A program made the position numbers and the translations under genes. 64,000 nucleotides of DNA from a virus. The notes beneath the pieces are model-generated. The model had not been told where the DNA came from. It saw nothing but the letters and a program-made list of their open reading frames with translations, and made no database searches. The DNA lies in the IMG/VR virus record IMGVR_UViG_3300037067_024426; one strand, written 5' to 3'. Positions within the stretch are counted from its first letter, which is position 1; each line of letters starts with the position of its first letter. Shown piece by piece: positions 1 through 61,674 of this stretch.

Positions 1-53
1 TCCCACAAGCTTCACAAACGTACTCGTAAGTCATTGAATGAATTACCGTACAG

Positions 54-125
54 AGCCAGCACCGGGAGTTGAACCCGGCTATCCTCGTTACGAATGAGGC
101 GCGTTCCCACGATTGCTATGCTGGC
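54..125 (-). tRNA. tRNA-Thr (anticodon CGU), predicted
   Basis: Reverse complement reads GCCAGCA..TGCTGGC acceptor stem. The T arm is CCGGG-TTCAACT-CCCGG. The anticodon loop is TTCGTAA, with U33 and A37. The anticodon stem closes with one A-C mismatch. The 3' end overlaps the stop of the HNH ORF. Confidence 0.5.
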
Positions 126-694
126 GTTAACTCAAGAGATCGAATTTTCGACCAATATCCGGCCGGTTTAGTTTTGATCTCATATTGTTCACATTTATGT
201 CTAACAGACATATGAGAGACACCGAACTGACGAGCGATTGAAGTTATAGGGATGGTTTCAATGAGTCTCGATAATTCTTCTTTATCGGGCCAGTCTATCT
301 TTTTCGGAGAAGAATTTGAGACAACGTTTTGACTGTTCGAAAAAAGCTCTTCCCGTTTCTTCTTTCTACGTTCCGATAACACTCTTTTTTCTTCGATGTT
401 AGTTTTCAGGGCTTCCTGGACCCAAGCATCGTGTATCTCTCGGTGACAACGACAACAGAGTAAAACGCATTTTTCAATTTCTCGTTTTACGCTTTCCCAC
501 CCGTAAGAACCATTAGATATGGAAAAATCTTTACCATCAGGTTCAGGATGATGAAATTCGAGAGCTGAAATGCACTTATCATAAGCACATTTTTCACATT
601 TCCCGCCCTTATACTCGACAGCTCTTATTTTTATTTTTCGTCGATGGTCAAAGATCTTAGTGCGAAAATAATCTTTTCGATTTCTTTTCTTCAC
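116..694 (-). CDS. HNH homing endonuclease with C-terminal helix-turn-helix
   Basis: HNH motif: ..EFHHPEPDGKDF..NG..LLCCRCHREIH. A helix-turn-helix-like segment SIARQFGVSHMSVRHK is present. The gene is embedded in the tRNA cluster, as is typical for phage homing endonucleases. It ends in TAG. Confidence 0.7.
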   Translation of the reverse strand: MKKRNRKDYFRTKIFDHRRKIKIRAVEYKGGKCEKCAYDKCISALEFHHPEPDGKDFSISNGSYGWESVKREIEKCVLLCCRCHREIHDAWVQEALKTNIEEKRVLSERRKKKREELFSNSQNVVSNSSPKKIDWPDKEELSRLIETIPITSIARQFGVSHMSVRHKCEQYEIKTKPAGYWSKIRSLELTPA

Positions 695-730
695 GATAAA
701 GAAATTTTACCATAAAGTTAACGACTTTTG

Positions 731-816
731 CTCCAGGGGTTGGATTCGAACCAACGACGGGGAATAAACCCAACGGATTAACAGTCCGCTCTCTGCTACC
801 ACTCGAGTACCCTGAA
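731..816 (-). tRNA. Atypical class-II-like tRNA (long variable arm); anticodon loop CTGTTAA suggests GUU
   Basis: The T arm is GTTGG-TTCGAAT-CCAAC. The acceptor is TTCAGGG/CCCTGGA with one G-U pair. The D loop is AGTGGTAG. The anticodon stem is GCGGA/TCCGT. A roughly 17-nt variable arm (GGG..CCC) is present. A long variable arm combined with a GUU anticodon is unusual. Confidence 0.4.
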
Positions 817-824
817 ATAGTTAG

Positions 825-897
825 CGCCCCTGATGGGAATTGAACCCACCTCGACCTAGCGTGACAAGCTAGCGTCCGCCCAGCGGACTTCAAGGGC
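825..897 (-). tRNA. tRNA-Asp (anticodon GUC)
   Basis: The acceptor is GCCCTTG/CAGGGGC. The anticodon arm is CTAGC-TTGTCAC-GCTAG. The T arm is GTGGG-TTCAATT-CCCAT. Confidence 0.65.
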
Positions 898-1111
898 AAA
901 AAAGGAGGCGTACCTCCAAGTTTTGCCTTGTTAGTCCGCCTCCGCCTACTATCATTTGCAGGCAAGGTACCCTCACCGAGCTTATGCCTTGCCATAGCCA
1001 GCGCCGTTGCCGGATAAACAAGGTTCCACTTTTCCGTCGCTAAAGCGCCGGCTGGGTTGGTCCTTAAACCTGTTAGATTGTCAAGGAGCGAGGATCCGCT
1101 TGGATCTTGCT

Positions 1112-1186
1112 TGGTTCCAGAACTAGGATTCGAACCTAGATAACGGGCTTCAGAGGCCCGCGTCTTAACCGTTGGACGATTCTGGA
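1112..1186 (-). tRNA. tRNA-Gln (anticodon CUG), CCA encoded
   Basis: A U1-A72 acceptor (TCCAGAA/TTCTGGA) as in bacterial tRNA-Gln. The anticodon arm is CGGGC-CTCTGAA-GCCCG. The T arm is CTAGG-TTCGAAT-CCTAG. The sequence ends ACCA. Confidence 0.7.
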
Positions 1187-1299
1187 ATAACAACTGTCTT
1201 GAAACCAAAACTGCTTGTAAACAGTGGTCATTCGTGCTGCGACTTGTACTTAACTGAGCTTGCAAACTAACTACTAACTTTTCCTTTTACTGAATTTCT

Positions 1300-1373
1300 T
1301 GGTGGATCTGGAGAGAATCGAACTCTCGCCGACGGGTTAAGAGCCCGCTGCTCGACCATTGAGCTACAGATCC
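1300..1373 (-). tRNA. tRNA-Lys (anticodon CUU), CCA encoded
   Basis: Clean cloverleaf. The acceptor is GGATCTG/CAGATCC. The D arm is GCTC-AATGGTC-GAGC. The anticodon loop is CTCTTAA. The T arm is GAGAG-TTCGATT-CTCTC. The sequence ends ACCA. Confidence 0.7.
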
Positions 1374-1377
1374 AAAA

Positions 1378-1452
1378 TGGTGGGTCGCCTCGGAATCGAA
1401 CCGAGCTCTCTCAGGTTAAAAGCCTGCTGCATCACCATGTTGCTAGCGACCC
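1378..1452 (-). tRNA. tRNA-Lys (anticodon UUU), CCA encoded
   Basis: The acceptor is GGGTCGC/GCGACCC. The anticodon loop is CTTTTAA. The T arm is CTCGG-TTCGATT-CCGAG. The sequence ends ACCA. Confidence 0.65.
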
Positions 1453-1522
1453 GAATCATCTGATTTGGGAATCGCTTCTGTTTTTGCTTCGAGTATCTCA
1501 TGGTCGTAAACTTTCTTCGGGG

Positions 1523-1603
1523 TGAGGCGTCTAGGAGTCGAACCTAGTGTGCCGTAAGGCGACAGTTTTACAGACTGCTTCGCAAGCCGCTGCGAGACGC
1601 CCC
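1523..1603 (-). tRNA. tRNA-Tyr (anticodon GUA), bacterial-type long variable arm
   Basis: The acceptor is GGGGCGT/ACGCCTC. The anticodon arm is GCAGT-CTGTAAA-ACTGT. The variable arm is CGCCTTACGGCAC. The T arm is CTAGG-TTCGACT-CCTAG. Confidence 0.65.
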
Positions 1604-2107: not shown

Positions 2108-2461
2108 CTACTGTTGAATCCCCGTATTCACCATCTTCGGAGCCTTACATCCACTATTCATGGATAGCTTAGCGGCGCATTCGACAGGTTGAATCGCTGT
2201 CTTTCCATTTTCATTATGGGAAATGCTGCAGCTCACATACCCATCGCCGTCAGAATCCATATCCGTACAAGAAACACCGATCACTTTAAGTCCGAGCTTC
2301 TGTGCATAAGCCCTGGCTGCCTCTTCTGCTTCTGCGCTACTCGAGGTACATCCTCGGAAGAGGAAATTTCCAGCAAGAGCAGCGATAGCGCCAAGGATAA
2401 CGATGACGATAATCAGCTCGATCAGAGTAAAACCGCGTGTTCTTGGGTGTCTTCGATTCAT
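2108..2461 (-). CDS. Prepilin-type N-terminal cleavage/methylation domain protein (type IV pilin or pseudopilin-like)
   Basis: N-terminus is MNRRHPRTRGFTLIELIIVIVILGAIAALA. This matches the class III signal G|FTLIE with Glu at +5 and a hydrophobic helix. Confidence 0.7.
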   Translation of the reverse strand: MNRRHPRTRGFTLIELIIVIVILGAIAALAGNFLFRGCTSSSAEAEEAARAYAQKLGLKVIGVSCTDMDSDGDGYVSCSISHNENGKTAIQPVECAAKLSMNSGCKAPKMVNTGIQQ

Positions 2462-3984: not shown

Positions 3985-4851
3985 TTAAAATACAACAACG
4001 CTACTAAGACTTACGTTATATTCTTCTAGGGTTGAGTATGCTTCAACTATTTCCCTGAAGCGCTTTTCTGCTTCTTTATCGCCCTGATTGACGTCAGGAT
4101 GATACGGTTTACAACGAATTCTCATCTGTTTTCTTGCAGAATCGAGATCTACAAGACGGCCTTTTTTCGGTCTATTTACCCCCAATAAGTCACAACTCCC
4201 ATAAACGATAGTCATGGCTTTTCTGTCAAGAGTGCTGAATGGTTTCGGTATAACCTCACCGAGCTTTTCTGTTTTATTGGCTCGGATTTTCATTATTTCA
4301 ATTGATCTCTTTAAATCGAGTTCAACTTCTCTAACTAAGAACTCGATTGAATCTTCTTGAAGATTTGGATTTTTCTTTCTAAGAAGTTCTGTCATCCTAC
4401 TGGTAAGAATCGCTATTTCCGATAAAACGGAAAATTTATCTTCCAGTTTTTTAGGTGGAGATGAAGGTGGTGGTGGAGGTGGTGGGACAGAAACTTCTAT
4501 TTCGTTAGATACTGAAGAATCAATCTTCGGTTTTATTTTTCGTCTTGGAATTCCGGCTTCATCTTCTAAAAGATGAAGTTTAGTTATAGCACCTGAAAGA
4601 GTTATTTCGTTATTATCTATTGAAGGCCATAAATTATCAGAAAGAGGAGAAGCATTGAGAAGTCTTGCTCTTGCTCGTATATTGATTTGTTTATCTTTAA
4701 GATGTGCCGCTATTGAAGCTACTTTTTCATTCCAAGTAGCGTTAGTTATAGCTTCCAATAAACGACGTTCTGCTTTCGCTTTCTCGAGTTGTGAAGGCGA
4801 AGTTTCAACATCCAGGAAAAGTATTTCTATATTACTTTCCATTAGATGCAC
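3985..4851 (-). CDS. J-domain (DnaJ-like) protein with proline-rich linker
   Basis: C-terminal J domain: LLGVNRPKKG..ARKQMRIRCKPYHPDVNQGDKEAEKRFREIVEAYSTL, containing the HPD tripeptide. A PPPPPPPSSPP linker is present. Confidence 0.55.
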   Translation of the reverse strand: MHLMESNIEILFLDVETSPSQLEKAKAERRLLEAITNATWNEKVASIAAHLKDKQINIRARARLLNASPLSDNLWPSIDNNEITLSGAITKLHLLEDEAGIPRRKIKPKIDSSVSNEIEVSVPPPPPPPSSPPKKLEDKFSVLSEIAILTSRMTELLRKKNPNLQEDSIEFLVREVELDLKRSIEIMKIRANKTEKLGEVIPKPFSTLDRKAMTIVYGSCDLLGVNRPKKGRLVDLDSARKQMRIRCKPYHPDVNQGDKEAEKRFREIVEAYSTLEEYNVSLSSVVVF

Positions 4852-30435: not shown

Positions 30436-31536
30436 ATGGTGTTCAAAATGAGTAGTAGGAATTACTACGAAGTTCTAGGCGTCACGAAAGACGTGAGTGA
30501 CGATGACTTAAGAAAAGCTTATAAAGCATTGGCTCTTAAGTTCCATCCAGACAGAAATCCGGATAACAAAGAAGCGGAAGCAAAATTCAAAGAAGCTACT
30601 GAAGCTTATTCGACACTCAGCGATACTGAAAAACGTCAGATTTATGACTTACAGTCCATGCCGAACCCATTTACTCGTGGATCACGGCCTCATGGATCAC
30701 GGCCTCCTTGGTCACCATTTGAGTCAATTGATCCAAATTCTATTTTCGATGAGTTCATGCGAACTCCAGGATTTAAAGTAAACACCGAGGATTCCCTGAA
30801 AGATCGCATAAGAAATGCGATGAAGGGCCGCGATGTTGAAATGGATATAACTATAACATTAGAAGAATCAATAGTTGGAGTTACCAAAGAAGTAAAAACA
30901 TCTACTGATTCAAATATTATGTGTGAAAAATGTAAAGGGACAAGAGCAAAACCAGGAACAAGAAAATTTCCATGTACCGCTTGTTCAGGATCAGGAAGAA
31001 ATTTCTATCAGGGCGGAAACAGTAAGTGTAAAGCTTGTCAGGGTCACGGGGATATCCCTTTCAATAAATGTGATCATTGTGGAGGGAAAGGGACAGTCAA
31101 AGGGACAAGAAATGTCTCCCTAAAAATTCCTGTCGGTATATCTGATGGACAAAAATTACGACTCGCTGGACAAGGTGGATTCGGTAATGGCGGTCCGCCC
31201 GGAGATTTGTATATAACAGTTAAAGTTACTGAGGACGATAACTTTGAACGAAAAGGGAATGATTTATGGACTAAATGTCAAGTCAGTCTATCCGATATTG
31301 TCAGGACAGGAAGAACGAAAGTAAAAACCATAACTGGCGATGAAGTATTCATTCAATTACCGAACGGATTCGTATCAGGCAATACGACTCTAAGAATTCA
31401 GGGCGCCGGAGTAAGACAGCCTGGTAGTGAACCAGGAAATTTATATGTCACTCTGAATCTTAGCGTACCGGCTATAAAAACAGCTAGAGCAAAAAAACTC
31501 CTTGAAGAGTTAGTAGATGAACTAGGCATATACTAG
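30436..31536 (+). CDS. dnaJ: DnaJ-type co-chaperone (J domain, four CxxCxGxG zinc-finger repeats, C-terminal domain)
   Basis: J domain: [33 protein letters not shown]. Zinc-finger repeats: [27 protein letters not shown] and CDHCGGKG. Confidence 0.9.
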
Positions 31537-37976: not shown

Positions 37977-38675
37977 TCATTCTTGAGCAGGAAACCCGTT
38001 TTCGACCAAACTCATATTATTATATCGAATATCCATCGTTACTTCTTTTCCGATCCACGGTGGTTTAATTATAGTAGCATCTTCTGAATCGATTTCAACT
38101 TCAGCTAACCATCCGCCCGATAGATCTTCAAAGAATTGATCGATTTCCCAAGTCCGTCCTTCAAACGGGAACTTATAACGAATTTTCGTTATTACTCTCT
38201 TACACATCTTAATAAGACGATTCCCGTCAATTCGTGGGATTGGATACTCAAATTCCTCACGTTTAAACAGAGCAGCTTGCTTTATCGTAATGCAAGCTTC
38301 ATTATTATTGACGAGTCTTATTCGAATTGGTGGATCTTTCGATAAATAACCTTGCTTTATTAATTCACCACCTTCGAAAACAGGAAGCTGATCAATTAAA
38401 ACAAGATACTTCCGTTCAATTTCAATCCGGGCTGGAATGTCATTAATATGAACAAACCACTCAGTTTCAAGAGCTTTAGGTATTTCAATTCCTGAAGAAT
38501 CGAATTTACATATAATATAGTGTTCTTTCAACCAAATCTCATCGCCCTTTTTCACTGCAGGTTGAAATACTTTATGATAGACATCTTCACCAGCAGCAAT
38601 TCTTTTGAATGCTATTTCAAAAGAGACTGGTGTAAAATCTTTTAAGTTGACCGGCGCATGTGAATCTTTAACCAT
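37977..38675 (-). CDS. CYTH-domain protein (triphosphate tunnel / class IV adenylyl cyclase fold) with a roughly 90-aa N-terminal extension
   Basis: RIEIERKYLV matches the CYTH start EIERKFLV. Further matches: IRIRLVNNNEACITIK, EFEYPIP, and KIRYKFPFEGRTWEIDQF..LAEVEIDSED. Confidence 0.7.
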   Translation of the reverse strand: MVKDSHAPVNLKDFTPVSFEIAFKRIAAGEDVYHKVFQPAVKKGDEIWLKEHYIICKFDSSGIEIPKALETEWFVHINDIPARIEIERKYLVLIDQLPVFEGGELIKQGYLSKDPPIRIRLVNNNEACITIKQAALFKREEFEYPIPRIDGNRLIKMCKRVITKIRYKFPFEGRTWEIDQFFEDLSGGWLAEVEIDSEDATIIKPPWIGKEVTMDIRYNNMSLVENGFPAQE

Positions 38676-38699: not shown

Positions 38700-39347
38700 T
38701 CAGTTGAAACTGAAATAAATAGAGGTGAATGCTGAAGAATCAAAACCTCTATAAACAAATGCGTATCCGGCAGTTACACCGAAATTCTTCGTAATATCAA
38801 AACCAGGACCGATACCGATACTTCGAATGCCTGGACTAACTGCTAAATTGACCGGTCCCACATGGAAAAAATCGAGACCAATCGATGCATCCCAAAAATC
38901 TTTTACTCCTCCAGAAAAAGATTTAATCATTTCAGGAACTAAAATTCCCGCTTGTGCTCGAATCCGAAGTCTAAACATCGGATCTGGAGGCTTCTCTCGA
39001 TAATTGACCTGAATAGGAAGAGTCGCTTCCATGTCACGTTCAATTGTAGGACCAAGTTTTAGTTTAAGTTTTATCGGTTTTTCCTTACCACCATTGATAT
39101 AAACTCGGTTATCCCAGTCACGGATGATAATGATAGTATCCGTGACTTCAATTTTAGCCGGGGATTCTTTAATCCCTTTGAGTTCTTTCAAAGCTGCAGC
39201 TACCTGTGCACTATCACTCTCCGATAGGCATATTCCGTTGCAAACTTGAATGTCGTGAATTTGCTTTTGTTCTGGTGGATCCGGTGTTGGCTGTTGAGCA
39301 AAACCGGTGGATGAAACGAGTAATATCGCCGGGATGAGTAGTTTCAC
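38700..39347 (-). CDS. Secreted protein with a C-terminal aromatic-rich segment reminiscent of an outer-membrane beta-barrel
   Basis: Signal peptide MKLLIPAILLVSSTGFAQQ. The C-terminus ..GYAFVYRGFDSSAFTSIYFSFN alternates aromatic residues. Confidence 0.45.
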   Translation of the reverse strand: MKLLIPAILLVSSTGFAQQPTPDPPEQKQIHDIQVCNGICLSESDSAQVAAALKELKGIKESPAKIEVTDTIIIIRDWDNRVYINGGKEKPIKLKLKLGPTIERDMEATLPIQVNYREKPPDPMFRLRIRAQAGILVPEMIKSFSGGVKDFWDASIGLDFFHVGPVNLAVSPGIRSIGIGPGFDITKNFGVTAGYAFVYRGFDSSAFTSIYFSFN

Positions 39348-39379: not shown

Positions 39380-40363
39380 TCATTCAACGGTTTGCGTTGC
39401 ACAACAGTAGCCCGTTCCAACTGGAGTATATTCACTGTTCTTCACTGCTACAACACATCCAGCGGGTGGAGTAGATGGATTCAGACAATCGTAGAGATAC
39501 GGTTTCCCTGCGGTGGCGCCAGTCGTTGGACAAGCTGGCGGGAAGTCAGCCCAGGCAACCATGCAAGAATTCTTGGTGAAGTTGCAGCAATAATTCTGCA
39601 CTGAGGGATCGGTAGAAGCAGTTGGCGCCAGTTGACACCTTGCATGCGTATTGAATGAAGTATCGGGCGCACTGCTATAAGAATAGCCAAACGACTTCCA
39701 CCCGTCAACACTAACATCGGAACAATCAATAGCGGTGTTTCGAACCGGACCAGCACAGTGTCGTGTTGCGTCACAAGTCTGGAAGACGCTGCAAATTGCC
39801 GATGGATTGTTTGGATTGCAGGCGAGACCTGTTGATGTTCCGCCAGCAGCGTTGGACCTGCCACCAGTGGCACCGCCAATATTGGACCTGCCACCAACTG
39901 AAGAAGAACCACCGGAACCTTCGCCTGCCTTACCGCCGGTAGCCGGAGTAGAACCACCGGTAGCCTGCGTCGTGTTACCGCCGGTAGCCTGTGGACTCGA
40001 GCCGCCACTAGCCTGAACTGCACCACCACTAGCAGGAACAGAACCACCGGAACCAGGCTGCGAAGAACCACCGGTAGCCTGCGTGCCTTGCCCACCCTGC
40101 CCACTACCAGCTACCGTCGTGGTAGTAGTCGTACTCGAGGAACCACCGGACGTAGTAGTCGTACTCGAGGAACCACCGGGAATAGTTGTAGTAGTCGTAC
40201 TCGAGGAACCGCCAGGCGTGGTCGAAGTATCGCCACCAAATTCCGTAGTAGATGCTCCAGCCACTCCGCCAGTTTCGTCGATCTTCGTAGAAGTCGCATC
40301 AACTGCGTCAGAACCACAACCCGTGATGAAGAGAACCAATAGTGCTGCAAAATTTGATTTCAT
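39380..40363 (-). CDS. Lipoprotein with mucin-like Ser/Thr/Gly tandem repeats and a Cys-rich C-terminal domain
   Basis: Signal and lipobox ..LFITGC. Repeats PGGSSSTTTT. A 12-Cys C-terminal domain. The alternative-frame ORFs on both strands are repeat artefacts. Confidence 0.6.
   Translation of the reverse strand: MKSNFAALLVLFITGCGSDAVDATSTKIDETGGVAGASTTEFGGDTSTTPGGSSSTTTTTIPGGSSSTTTTSGGSSSTTTTTTVAGSGQGGQGTQATGGSSQPGSGGSVPASGGAVQASGGSSPQATGGNTTQATGGSTPATGGKAGEGSGGSSSVGGRSNIGGATGGRSNAAGGTSTGLACNPNNPSAICSVFQTCDATRHCAGPVRNTAIDCSDVSVDGWKSFGYSYSSAPDTSFNTHARCQLAPTASTDPSVQNYCCNFTKNSCMVAWADFPPACPTTGATAGKPYLYDCLNPSTPPAGCVVAVKNSEYTPVGTGYCCATQTVE
40100..40235 (-). repeat. Tandem roughly 42-nt coding repeats (three copies) inside the lipoprotein gene
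   Basis: The unit gtagtagtcgtactcgaggaaccaccgg recurs three times with minor changes. Confidence 0.6.
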
Positions 40364-40418: not shown

Positions 40419-41000
40419 TCATTTTCCAGACACTAGCCCTATTTGTTCAGGAAGATCATCATTATCCGACCATCCGTGTCTATTTTCTGCCAAAGTTTCA
40501 CGGATAGTTGCTCCCGGATTTTCCTTAATTAATCTATCGTAAAGAGTTATATAAACAGCCGCTGAAAGATTAACACAATGACGTGTCGGAATTACGACAA
40601 ATCTATGACAACGAGAAAGAATGGAAGGAGGTACACTCCCATCTTCCGGTCCAAAAATGTAAAGAGCTTTTTCTGGATGAATAAAAGAAGCCAGTGATTC
40701 AGAATTAGGACGTAATTCAATAGCAACCGGAACAACAGTATCATCATACTGATCAAGAAAATGATCGTATTGACGAAGTTCGACTTCTTTGAACCCCTTC
40801 ATCCGTTCTTCGCGTGGCAGTTTTTTCATTTGGCTTAATGCGAATTGAACTCTTTCGCCCGTAAACCAAACTTGATCGACACCAAAACAGCTAGCAGCCC
40901 TCATGGCGGCTCCAACATTATGAGGAAACCGCGGATTCATGAGAGCGACTGCTGGAAGTCGACCTAACTTTTTTGCGTTCTTACCGTAAATCTCGGGCAT
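40419..41000 (-). CDS. SpoU/TrmH-family RNA 2'-O-methyltransferase
   Basis: Motif 1: LMNPRFPHNVGAAMRAASCFG. Motif 3: LYIFGPEDGSVPP..VIPTRHCVNLSAAVYITLYD. Confidence 0.8.
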   Translation of the reverse strand: MPEIYGKNAKKLGRLPAVALMNPRFPHNVGAAMRAASCFGVDQVWFTGERVQFALSQMKKLPREERMKGFKEVELRQYDHFLDQYDDTVVPVAIELRPNSESLASFIHPEKALYIFGPEDGSVPPSILSRCHRFVVIPTRHCVNLSAAVYITLYDRLIKENPGATIRETLAENRHGWSDNDDLPEQIGLVSGK

Positions 41001-57004: not shown

Positions 57005-57691
57005 TTAAAAAGACGTGGAATCGTAGTACCGATTAAAAATCTTCTTCGTTGCAAGTCGTTGTGAATCATTCGGTTGAGCTGAAAGAGCAATTACACAACC
57101 AATTTTGGCTGCCCAGTCACGACCCGGATAACCTGCATAATAACCATCAATGCCTCCAACACAAAATTGAGATACTACACCAGCGTTTGAAGCCTCAATC
57201 ATGTGTATTCCCGGTGATACTGTATCGGTTAAAACGCAATCAACATACCTATCTATCGATTGACTTGGATAAAGTGCGCTATTACCTGCGTATCCAGTGA
57301 TAGCCTGCATTCCAACATTAGTTACTATTACTGATGGATAGTCACTAAATGGGAGACTAGGCATCGTAACTAATGTTATGAAAGTCTTCACATAAGAAGG
57401 AACTATTACTGAGTTAGCTCTCAGAGATTTACCAGCTGGAGCTGCTGAATATAATGCTTTTCTATTATTGATTAAACCAAGTATGAATCGATTTGATGAA
57501 CTATTTGATAATAAATTATATCCAGACATACTTGGCCATTTATCTACATTCCCTGATGTATCAAGTATTAATTGATCGCCAATCCAAGCATCGATAAAAC
57601 TAAGACTGAATATATCAACTAAATTTCGATAAAGCCATATAGGTGATATGGTCACTCCACCAGGAACTGAGAGTTGACCAGGTATGCTCAT
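57005..57691 (-). CDS. Hypothetical structural-module protein
   Basis: A 228-aa ORF. Its ATG overlaps the TGA of the collagen-like gene. Confidence 0.5.
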
Positions 57692-60600
57692 GTTATATCC
57701 TCAAAGTTAGTCCACCATTTACTACGTGCCATAAATGTGGCTCCTCCTGAGGGTCTTTGTGCTGAAATTATGAATCCTCCTGTTGCAACTGCCATCGTAG
57801 CAACTGTATTAGCCATTCCTGTTGGATACTGACTAGTATCGAAATAGACCTGATTTTGGAATTTAACGGTAGCAAGTCCAGAAGGATCTGTTGTAACATA
57901 TGCGTCAACTTGGCAGTCAAGATTTCCTGAAATACTCTTATCTGCCGGTTCCCATACTGTTACACGAGTTCCTAATCGACAAATGTATATCTTAGAAGTC
58001 CCTAATCCGGAGAGAACTTCAGATCGAACAATTGTCAATGCATTAGTTCCGAGTATGACATCTCCAATTGTTGAACTAGTACTCAATACTGCTGGACCTG
58101 TGGCTCCTTGAGCACCTGTTGCACCAGCTGGACCTGTTGCACCAGCTGGACCCGCAGCGCCAGTAGGACCTGGAGGTCCTCCTGCTGGTCCGGTAGGACC
58201 TTCTGGACCCGTCACACCAGCTGGACCTGTGGCACCGGCAGGACCTGGAGAGCCTTGAGCCCCTTGAGGACCTGTAGCTCCTGTTCCACCACCAGCGGGA
58301 CCTGTGGGTCCTTCTGGTCCTGTGGCACCCTGTGGACCTTGTGGTCCTGTAGGGCCACCAAAAGGACCTGTGGGTCCTTCCAGTCCTGTTGCACCCTGAG
58401 GGCCAGTGACTCCAGGTGATCCTTGTAATCCTATCGAACCTGTCGCACCAGTAACTCCATCGATACCAGTTGCACCTTGGATCCCTTGTGGACCTGTGGC
58501 ACCTTGTGGACCTGTGACCCCTTGGATGCCTTGAAGACCTGTGGCACCATCGATACCAGTAGCACCTTGGATCCCTTGTGGACCTGTGGCACCCTGTGGA
58601 CCTGTAGATCCCTGAGGGCCTGTAGATCCCTGAAGACCAGTTGCACCCTGCAGTCCAGTAGAACCAGTTATTCCCGGAGATCCTTGATCACCTTGAGGAC
58701 CTGTGGATCCCTGAAGGCCAGTAGCACCTTGAGGACCTGTGGATCCCTGAAGACCAGTTGCACCTTGAGGGCCAGTTGCACCTTGTGGTCCCGTAGCACC
58801 TTGTGGTCCCGTAGGGCCACCAAAAGGACCGGTAGCACCTTCAGGACCCGTAACACCGGGTGATCCCTGAATGCCTTGTGGACCTGTAATTCCATCGAGT
58901 CCAGTTACCCCAGGCGATCCTTGAGGGCCTTGAAGACCAGTTGCACCCTGCAGTCCTATCCACCCGGTAGCACCTTGCGGGCCTGTAGCACCTTCAGGAC
59001 CAGTAGCACCCTGAAGACCCGTAGCGCCTTGGATCCCTTGAGGACCTGTAGGTCCTTCCAGGCCTGTAGCACCTTGTGGACCTGTAGATCCTTGAGGTCC
59101 GGTAGCACCCTGTGGACCCGTAGGACCGCCAAAAGGACCCGTGGGCCCTTCCAGGCCTGTGGCACCCTGTGGTCCTGTAAATCCTTGAGGACCTGTGGCA
59201 CCCTGTGGACCCGTTGCTCCAGTAACGCCATCGATACCAGTTGCACCCTGTGGACCTGTAGGACCGCCAAAAGGACCTGTGGGTCCTTCCAATCCAGTTG
59301 CACCCTGTGGACCCGTAGATCCTTGAGGTCCGGTAGCACCCTGTGGACCAGTTGCACCAGTTACCCCATCAATACCAGTAGCACCCTGTGGACCCGTAGG
59401 GCCACCAAAAGGACCTGTAGGTCCTTCCAGGCCTGTAGCACCTCGTAATCCAGTGGCACCTTGTGGACCTGTGGCACCCTGTGGACCAGTCGCACCAGTT
59501 ACCCCATCAATACCAGTTGCACCCTGGAGGCCTGTCCAACCAGTTGCACCCTGAGGGCCAGTTGCACCCTGAGGGCCAGTTGCACCTGTTAAACCATCAG
59601 GACCCGTGACACCAGTAACTCCATCGATACCAGTTGCACCCTGAGGACCAGTTGCACCTGTTAAACCATCAGGACCCGTTGCTCCAGTAACGCCATCGAT
59701 ACCCGTAGCACCCTGAGGACCAGTCCAACCGGTATGACCGGGGGATCCTTGAGCACCTTGGATACCCGTAACTCCAACAATTGCAGCTCCAATCGTTCTG
59801 CTATATTCACTGAAAATTGCTTGAGCAGAAAGATTTGTTGGAACAACTTTGAGAGATGAAATAACAAGATTTCTTGGCGCAGCAAGAACTTGATTCTGAT
59901 CAATACCGACCTTAAAAGTTCCGCTCTGCCCACCGTTTGTAAACGCTGCTAATCCAGTCGCATAAAGTTTACCGTTCATGTAGAAGCCGATATTTGCACC
60001 GGCATCTCTGACAACGGCAAGATGGAAAGGTTGATCTACAGGAGGAACTGCACCTGTTCCAATTGTGATCGAGTCTGCTCCAGCACCACTCTCTGAAGAG
60101 AATTCAACATATCGAGTGATTCCAGCAAAACTAATAGCATAAACTTCATTATCGGTTGGGTTTTCACCGATATTCGAATGTGCGACAAATGGTAATCCAG
60201 TTGGAGTAGGCTCTGGAATTTTTACGATTGCTTCAATCGTAACTGGACCAAGTATTCTTAACTCTGGATCAGCTACAGTTCTTCTTAAGAATGAAGTCCC
60301 GTCAAATACGAAACCACGTTTACCAGGACCGATTTCCCCATAATTTTCAATACCAGAAGCTACAGAGAGATCCTTACTGAGACCAGATGTGTCTGTTAAA
60401 TTCCCGTCAAATTGCCATAACCCAACTGGTGAATAAATGGTATCATGTGGTCTTATTTGATAAACACTAACAGGGCCTGTAAGACCTGCAGGACCAGGGG
60501 CGCCTGTAGCGCCTGTAGCACCGGCAACACCCTGAGGACCCGTAGCGCCTAATAAACCTGGGGATCCTTGAAGACCCGTTTGACCTCGAGGACCTGTCGG

Positions 60601-61674
60601 GCCTGTAGCGCCCTGTGGACCTGTATGACCCGTGGGACCAGGAGCACCCGTGGCACCAGCAACACCAGGAATTCCTGCAGTACCCTGAATCCCTTGAGGA
60701 CCTGTGGCACCCGTGACACCAGCAGGACCTGTAGCACCAGTAACACCGTCAGGGCCAGTAGGGCCACCAAAGGGACCTGTAGCGCCCTGTGGACCTGTAT
60801 AACCAAGACCCGTGGCACCCTGAGGACCTGTAGCGCCTGTGACACCAGGAGCACCTTCAGGGCCTGTGACACCCGTAGGACCAGGAAGGCCTGTAGCACC
60901 TTGAATCCCTTGAGGACCAGTAGGGCCCTGAAGACCGATAGGACCAGTAGGACCCGTATAACCAGGACCCGTAACACCTTGTGGTCCTGTAGCACCTTGC
61001 TGACCAATTGGTCCTGTTGGACCTAGAAAACCCTGCAACCCCCGTTGACCTGTCGGGCCAATCGATCCTGTTCGACCAATTGATCCTGTAGGTCCTTGTA
61101 GCCCTTGCGGACCTGCAGGCCCCGTTGGCCCTTGCGCGCCCGTAGAACCAGCGATACCGTCAAGTCGGCGGATGAGATCATTTAAACCGCCTCTAGGTAT
61201 ACCTCCCGAAGGTATATTTTCTGCCCAGCCATATTCTGCTCCGCCATAATTTTGTTCATCCGGTTTCGCACCAGGAGCACCACTTTCTAGTGGTGGAAGT
61301 GGGAGTGGCCATCTTTGAACTGGAGGCTGTATGAAACCACGAACGGGTTCTGGAACAGAAAAAACTCGAATGTCTATATTTGGAGTACCTACATAGTTAG
61401 CAGCTCCCCAAACTTTTAGAACAAATCGATAAGATCCAGATACGTCAGGCGTAAATGAAGCGAGGGGTGTATTTCCAGTGCTCGAGAAAGCATAAGGAGA
61501 TGCTACCGAAATTGCACTTCCGATAGGAGTGAAAACAAGGTCAATCTTCCAAGAGGCGACCCCCGTGTTGTCGCTATTTTCAATCTGAACGGGTACCCCG
61601 ACGACACCAATTAGTGCTCGGCCGTCGGCGATATTAAGACCCTGTGTGAATTTAATTAACGCCGTTACAGACAT
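57688..61674 (-). CDS. Collagen-like triple-helix repeat protein (1328 aa) with an N-terminal domain and a central lectin (LamG/ConA)-like domain
   Basis: Two long Gly-X-Y tracts ([16 protein letters not shown]..). They are separated by a roughly 240-aa globular insert (..[18 protein letters not shown]..). Confidence 0.85.
58090..61150 (-). repeat. Degenerate 9-nt periodic (Gly-X-Y) coding repeats with longer internal duplications
   Basis: ggacc(t/a)gt(a/g)gc..-type periodicity. Blocks such as [35 protein letters not shown] recur four or more times. Confidence 0.7.

Follow-up and report, generated by a model that had tools for sequence, protein, structure and literature searches.

The gene at 37977..38675 of the window, by which we mean the whole 64,000-nucleotide stretch of viral DNA that was analysed, raises two questions: which reaction is carried out by a CYTH protein encoded by a virus, and what its N-terminal extension adds to it. 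A first-pass annotation described the gene as encoding a CYTH (triphosphate-tunnel) protein next to an SNF2 helicase, left the choice between triphosphatase and class IV adenylyl cyclase open, and suggested that a copy borne by a mobile element could generate or destroy nucleotide signals, for example in counter-defence. The CYTH annotation of the protein is already present in public databases, where the identical protein is named 'MAG: CYTH domain-containing protein [Lentisphaeria bacterium]'. What is new here is an orphan N-terminal module on a CYTH protein, restricted to one phage clade and polymorphic within that clade. The features discussed below are collected in Table 1.

Table 1. Features of the CYTH gene and its downstream neighbour, in window positions.
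Feature	Position	Strand	Remark
Whole open reading frame: N-terminal orphan module plus CYTH/TTM domain	37977..38675	-	232 aa, ATG start, TGA stop
N-terminal module, aa 1-83	38427..38675	-	predicted beta-alpha-beta4-alpha-beta fold, net charge about -2
CYTH / triphosphate tunnel metalloenzyme domain, aa 84-232	37980..38426	-	NeuTTM-like
ExExK signature E85-I-E87-R-K89	38409..38423	-	equals NeuTTM E4/E6/K8 by alignment
RxR triphosphate-binding motif R118-I-R120 (putative)	38316..38324	-	P116 at the W/Y position of thiamine triphosphatases
Y110	38346..38348	-	equivalent of NeuTTM Tyr-28, putative catalytic dyad
K132	38280..38282	-	equivalent of NeuTTM Lys-52, putative catalytic dyad
beta8 ExE metal-binding motif E192-V-E194	38094..38102	-	equals NeuTTM E114/E116; ExA in class IV cyclases
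SNF2-family helicase, 707 aa	35742..37865	-	neighbour; first gene of the replication block after CYTH

Fold and catalytic motifs of the CYTH part

The open reading frame and the motif blocks quoted in the first-pass annotation were recovered exactly as given there, with EIERKYLV at aa 85-92, RIRLV..ITIK at aa 118-132, EFEYPIP at aa 141-147 and RYKFPFEGRTWEIDQF..AEVEI at aa 166-195. An HMM search with PF01928, the check that had been proposed for the CYTH fold, matched aa 84-211 at 35.6 bits, above the gathering score of 23.2 (E 1.1e-8), and PHROG 6660, a phage family of unknown function, matched aa 85-224 (E 3.3e-20). In the PDB, the sole match of a single-sequence search was NE1496, or NeuTTM (2fbl/3typ, E 1.5e-13), and a profile of 14 sequences retrieved NeuTTM alone (E 1.3e-28), with no other CYTH enzyme at E <= 10. 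These matches bear out the CYTH fold. The AlphaFold2 model of the full-length protein had a mean pLDDT of 81, with 85-94 across most of the CYTH part, and the eight-stranded beta-barrel (tunnel or cleft) that characterises the CYTH superfamily was found in the protein.

The ExExK signature is kept in 13 of the 14 aligned homologues, and E87, R88 and K89 are invariant (alignment A1). Further NeuTTM equivalents in the HMMER alignment are R139 (R59), E141/E143 (E61/E63), K164/R166 (K85/R87) and E177/D179 (E99/D101). Both opposed sets of tunnel residues are present, the basic set comprising R118/R120, K132, R139 and K164/R166 and the acidic set E141/E143, E177/D179 and E192/E194, and together with E85/E87/K89 they provide the conserved ExExK and acidic metal ligands that the CYTH assignment presupposed. 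R118 and R120, within the 'IR[IV]RL' stretch of the clade, form invariant columns across 22 homologues (alignment A4). An RxR motif is thus present, and R118/R120 would match NeuTTM R39/R41 residue for residue, with HMMER and one MAFFT run placing the motif two residues out of register with respect to these residues. Judged from its sequence, the protein shows every testable hallmark of the CYTH/TTM superfamily and of its NeuTTM-like subgroup.

Vogt et al. gave three discriminators of class IV cyclases, namely HFxxxxExExK, a small residue for the first Arg of RxR and ExA on beta8, and described W/YxRxR in thiamine triphosphatases (PMC8233210). In the phage protein, the residues six and five positions before E85 are D79-I80 and not HF, the first Arg of RxR is kept (R118), and the beta8 motif is E192-V-E194, so that the second Glu is not replaced by Ala. 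The aromatic position of the thiamine triphosphatases is taken by P116 (P116-I-R118-I-R120), or by R118 in the other register, and neither residue is aromatic. The Cet1-type family PF02940 (mRNA_triPase) had no score in the Pfam search, which was reported to E 1 and listed the CYTH family alone, and the structural similarity of Cet1-type enzymes to the protein was far below that of NeuTTM. Every distinguishing feature of AC-IV, thiamine triphosphatases and Cet1-type enzymes is missing from the protein. Because the three cyclase motifs and the thiamine-triphosphatase aromatic residue are absent, triphosphate hydrolysis is predicted and not cyclic-nucleotide synthesis; on these motifs, the protein is very probably a triphosphatase and not a cyclase. 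Between the two activities left open by the first-pass annotation, the triphosphatase is favoured and the cyclase is not, and the generation of nucleotide signals becomes unlikely by the same residues (D79-I80, R118, E192/E194). The automatic label 'adenylate cyclase' borne by many homologues is legacy annotation, which the confident 'triphosphatase, not cyclase' call given by the catalytic motifs corrects.

The N-terminal module and its natural variation

The extension reported at the N-terminus proved to be an 83-residue module joined directly before ExExK in a continuous open reading frame, an orphan under purifying selection that one sister lineage lacks. Codons 70-90 offer no in-frame ATG, GTG or TTG, and an internal start giving a short isoform was rejected on that ground. 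Across four orthologous genes, dN/dS was 0.07-0.26 for the module and 0.07-0.18 for the CYTH part. The module is thus under purifying selection and, given the continuous frame, the lack of alternative starts at codons 70-90 and the dN/dS values, appears to be translated.

AlphaFold gave the same beta-alpha-beta4-alpha-beta fold whether the module was modelled by itself (pLDDT 75) or as part of the full-length protein, the module model, built from 6 similar sequences, being of moderate confidence. The module holds 11 K+R against 13 D+E and is slightly acidic, hence no obvious nucleic-acid binder, and no recognisable nucleotide-binding fold was found in it. Its relatives were sought widely. Pfam and PHROG searches returned nothing beyond noise at E <= 10, and an exhaustive hmmsearch of a 6-sequence module profile against 1.84 billion representative proteins found only the cluster of the module itself. 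A single-sequence scan of IMG/VR gave no match; a Foldseek search of BFVD with this moderate-confidence module model gave no significant fold match (best hit E 0.03, TM about 0.5).

Several candidate origins of the module were rejected. An ASCH/PUA-like module (ASCH, PUA, EVE) showed no sequence-profile or fold similarity, an internal duplication of the CYTH part had an hhalign probability of 0.1%, and for a paralogue in the window tblastn recovered only the gene itself. An hmmsearch of 4678 ORFs from 51 loci, aimed at relatives among the small genes upstream of CYTH in other phages, returned the same clade only. The apparent N-terminal similarity in L014/L015 (query 28-227) and H5 (query 53-228) consisted of tblastn read-through artefacts; the ORFs actually present there are standalone CYTH genes, 148 and 156 aa in length, and a prfB gene lying upstream gives the H5 record a bacterial appearance.

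Close relatives offer a natural experiment, since sister phages carry the same enzyme with and without the 83-aa orphan module. Six full-length (232-aa) orthologues occur at 74-100% identity. Two shorter proteins, P0007 (159 aa) and P0008 (162 aa), lack the module and match the CYTH part at about 80% identity. In the DNA encoding P0008 (L007), the flanking genes are the same and the two forms differ by one clean in-frame indel (about 210 nt); the opening codons (M-x-A-P-I) and the closing ones (..P-x-R-IEIERK) of the long form are both retained in the short one. The short forms were monophyletic in 96% of bootstraps, and were nested inside the long forms in 54%, which implies loss, versus sister to them in 33%, which is compatible with gain. 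As a close relative keeps the enzyme without it, the module is accessory. Another orthologue, P0005 (232 aa, on a 1173-bp Logan contig), keeps the module and carries E85G, R139C, E141K and E177K, with no precomputed Pfam match; it could be a catalytically dead variant, hinting at a non-catalytic role in some lineages, or the product of poor assembly.

Other extensions were seen among distant metagenomic CYTH homologues: P0009 combines a W-x-R-x-R motif with a C-terminal tail rich in Cys (CPDCGG...CPSF), and P0058 has a hydrophobic N-terminal extension of about 100 aa with a membrane-spanning look.

The phage and the gene neighbourhood

The mobile element invoked by the first-pass annotation is a large phage. 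The window is part of an uncultivated tailed phage of at least 157 kb, the length of the longest contig with the identical protein (ERZ27247363 k141_2920649). In all, 31 contigs carry this protein; the places listed for it, six in number, represent six different samples. Megablast found no close phage relative in GenBank, and PolA was at most 36% identical.

The CYTH gene lies directly upstream of a replication block of SNF2, DnaB, primase and PolA. The adjacent SNF2 gene noted earlier was confirmed, starting 111 nt downstream (Pfam SNF2-rel_dom E 3.5e-32, plus Helicase_C); the helicase is context for the CYTH gene and a candidate partner at most. In a single sample (L003, 10811..13981) the SNF2 orthologue reaches 1056 aa, compared with 707 aa for the helicase of the window, owing to an insertion of about 349 aa inside Walker A (GLGK|...|T) that has LAGLIDADG-type motifs (LLGVLLGDGS, LMDTDGYV), ends in HN followed by T, and has the look of an intein bearing a homing endonuclease; the window lacks this insertion. 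An intergenic motif, ATATCGGAAGG, between CYTH and SNF2 was rejected as a conserved element, as it occurs once in the window and not above chance.

For the four orthologues with retrieved contigs (P0005 left out), the gene order is SpoU methylase, a 308-327-aa gene, a 208-215-aa gene, CYTH, and SNF2 or its start as far as the contig reaches; in L013, the 308-327-aa gene is broken into smaller ORFs. On the longer contigs (L001-L006, L008), SNF2 is followed by a 257-280-aa gene, DnaB, a primase zinc finger, DnaJ and PolA. The SpoU-class RNA 2'-O-methyltransferase (40419..41000, minus strand; Pfam E 3.6e-18) is three genes upstream of CYTH and kept in all related contigs. Neither gene between them has a family match. 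That directly upstream of CYTH (38700..39347, minus strand) encodes what looks like a signal peptide and an outer-membrane-barrel-like C-terminus ending in ..YFSFN, and the next (39380..40363, minus strand) an LFITGCGS lipobox, a long Ser/Thr/Gly-rich low-complexity stretch and a Cys-rich C-terminal part. The former appears to be a secreted beta-barrel-like protein and the latter a lipoprotein; both may be surface-modifying morons, and these two surface-type genes suggest a diderm host, for which the MAG label makes Lentisphaeria a candidate. Across 40 phage CYTH loci, no recurrent neighbour gene was found beyond the within-clade synteny.

The window also holds several genes of independent interest. 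An 886-aa ORF (15367..18027, minus strand) is homologous to the eukaryotic Major Vault Protein (Pfam MVP_shoulder E 8e-30, plus a Vault repeat), its aa 524-833 matching MVP 478-817 among the PDB MVP chains at E 7e-19 with a similar overall length; a vault-protein homologue is unusual in a phage genome. It adjoins a tRNA gene with a CTA anticodon, of amber-suppressor type (18094..18168, minus strand; tRNA-Pyl according to ARAGORN), which itself adjoins a PTH2 peptidyl-tRNA hydrolase gene (18203..18523). As TAG ends 11 of the 56 long ORFs of the window, wholesale recoding of TAG is not evident. Seven further tRNA genes (Thr, Asn, Asp, Gln, Lys twice, Tyr) form a cluster at 53..1603 (minus strand).

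Three sigma-70-family factors, at 9504..10427, 18520..19035 and 24186..24884 (all minus strand), suggest phage-directed transcriptional programming; one has regions 2 and 4, one is ECF-like and one has a weak region 2 only. A full DnaJ-type chaperone (DnaJ, DnaJ_C, Zn-finger) is encoded at 30436..31536 (plus strand) and a second J-domain protein at 3985..4851 (minus strand). The minus strand also carries genes for an RRM-domain RNA-binding protein (12827..13285, E 2.7e-24), a dual-specificity protein phosphatase (11284..11775, E 1.4e-8), a protein whose N-terminus bears a methylation motif like that of type IV pilins (2108..2461), and a 1328-aa protein with about ten collagen triple-helix repeat stretches (57688..61674, Pfam Collagen E 6e-104), probably a fibre or decoration protein.

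Proposed function, alternatives and known systems

Considering these results, we regard it as probable that the gene is an accessory gene of a large phage and encodes a metal-dependent triphosphatase of the NeuTTM subfamily, with PPPi as the most likely substrate and a lineage-specific module that regulates or targets the enzyme. [quoted passage not shown] In the phage protein, the C-terminal 149 residues form the CYTH barrel, in which ExExK, ExE and the E/D ligands would bind metal ions (two-metal) and RxR, K and the K..R residues would hold the triphosphate; the Tyr110/Lys132 dyad would activate a water molecule, and the terminal phosphate would be cut off. PPPi would most likely be split into PPi and Pi, as by NeuTTM, with a nucleoside triphosphate (NTP or dNTP) as second choice. 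As the physiological substrate, PPPi is put forward tentatively, somewhat short of probable; among the ORFs annotated in the window, no PPPi-producing enzyme was found. Enzymes known to generate PPPi include QueD of the 7-deazaguanine pathway, dNTP triphosphohydrolases and cobalamin adenosyltransferase. The gene would be expressed with the replication genes or just ahead of them.

For the module, a place at one mouth of the tunnel is suggested by class IV cyclases, in which residues just before beta1 contact the nucleobase (PMC8233210). It would be an independently folding add-on directly before strand beta1 that could gate access or dock a partner. Most likely its part is to regulate the enzyme or to direct it to a partner protein; a contribution to catalysis itself is unlikely, since the same enzyme occurs without the module in a phage lineage close to this one. 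Our confidence in any specific role of the module is low.

Nucleotide house-cleaning, in which NTP or dNTP hydrolysis (NTP to NDP and Pi) would reshape the pool for phage DNA synthesis and the module would recognise base or sugar at the tunnel mouth, is the alternative that survives best, and we consider it rather unlikely. This role has been proposed, for CYTH as for MazG genes, in a survey of jumbo phages that found CYTH 'scattered across all groups' and possibly NTP-degrading (PMC7824862). The gene adjoins replication genes here, and one unrelated clade has CYTH flanked by an apparent DNA polymerase on one side and an apparent ThyX on the other (identities read from translations). CthTTM, a related bacterial CYTH enzyme, is reported to be less specific than NeuTTM (PMC3440374), and 42% identity to NeuTTM leaves the substrate specificity of the phage protein unfixed; moreover, the extension precedes beta1, at the site of the nucleobase-stacking HF motif of class IV cyclases. 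However, NeuTTM, the closest characterised relative, is PPPi-specific, genes of DNA-modification pathways were not found in the window beyond a Dam-like methyltransferase, and the module is dispensable in the sister lineage, slightly acidic and without a recognisable nucleotide-binding fold.

A bolder reading of the module is that of a new clade-specific domain that redirects an ordinary PPPase, by docking a host or phage protein or by gating the tunnel mouth toward a triphosphate-bearing molecule of host immunity or phage replication, its presence/absence polymorphism reflecting a host-phage arms race; we hold this to be improbable. Still a little less probable is the counter-defence role raised in the first-pass annotation, in which the enzyme would remove a triphosphate-bearing immune signal or precursor, or the PPPi arising from host dNTP triphosphohydrolase defences, with the module attaching to a defence protein of the host. 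Lineage-specific orphan modules and variation in presence or absence, when seen in phage accessory genes, are typical of genes caught up in an arms race, and the module varies by indel between close relatives; dNTP triphosphohydrolases also release PPPi. The proposal nevertheless found no support: no PADLOC model matched the CYTH protein or its unannotated neighbours, the generic SNF2-type matches concerning the helicase only, no partner gene is conserved across phages, and a literature search found neither an account of such a role nor an experimental paper on any phage CYTH.

An RNA 5'-triphosphatase, which would take the gamma phosphate off 5'-ppp primers or transcripts in the manner of Cet1-type TTMs and use the module to bind nucleic acid, is very unlikely, as PF02940 did not score, Cet1-type structures matched far more poorly than NeuTTM, the module is not basic, and no guanylyltransferase was seen among the annotated ORFs of the window. 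[quoted passage not shown]

CYTH/TTM genes are scattered in large phages, where the part they play during infection is a question of minor weight, and the protein described here is a clear example of them. If the module of the triphosphatase described here gives a new specificity or partner, it would show phages building new functions onto housekeeping folds; if it does not, the gene would be a routine accessory gene of nucleotide or phosphate metabolism.

Among known systems, multidomain CYTH proteins (YgiF, CYTH-CHAD; plant TTM1/2, kinase-CYTH; CYTH with HD or exopolyphosphatase) share the principle of a barrel with an accessory domain. In the phage protein, by contrast, the module is N-terminal, only 83 aa long, unrelated to CHAD, kinase, HD or exopolyphosphatase domains, and confined to one phage clade. 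The protein is not a member of the class IV adenylyl cyclases (CyaB of Aeromonas, YpAC-IV of Yersinia), as it lacks HF and has the gate-keeper Arg and the second Glu of ExE. CYTH in T4-like phages was noted as early as 2006 (PMC1524935), and phages of Pseudomonas, Vibrio and Xanthomonas carry standalone CYTH genes, as do huge phages known from metagenomes. Examples are Pseudomonas phage Astolliot UOL48612.1 and Vibrio phage 2.275.O NVP2275O_318; huge-phage records from metagenomes, LR745208 for one, contain CYTH-like stretches that lack annotation. Like the query, these are accessory genes, and a triphosphatase activity has been proposed for them (PMC7824862). These standalone proteins (phrog_6660) belong to the same family as the query, with 34-46% identity over aa 84-228; those inspected are 148-160 aa long, have no N-terminal module and lie in neighbourhoods unrelated to that of the query. 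NeuTTM itself (NE1496, Nitrosomonas europaea; PDB 2FBL/3TYP) is a single-domain bacterial enzyme, whereas the protein described here is phage-encoded, shares 42% identity with it, has loops of a different length around RxR and a predicted substrate, and carries an 83-aa module without a counterpart in NeuTTM.
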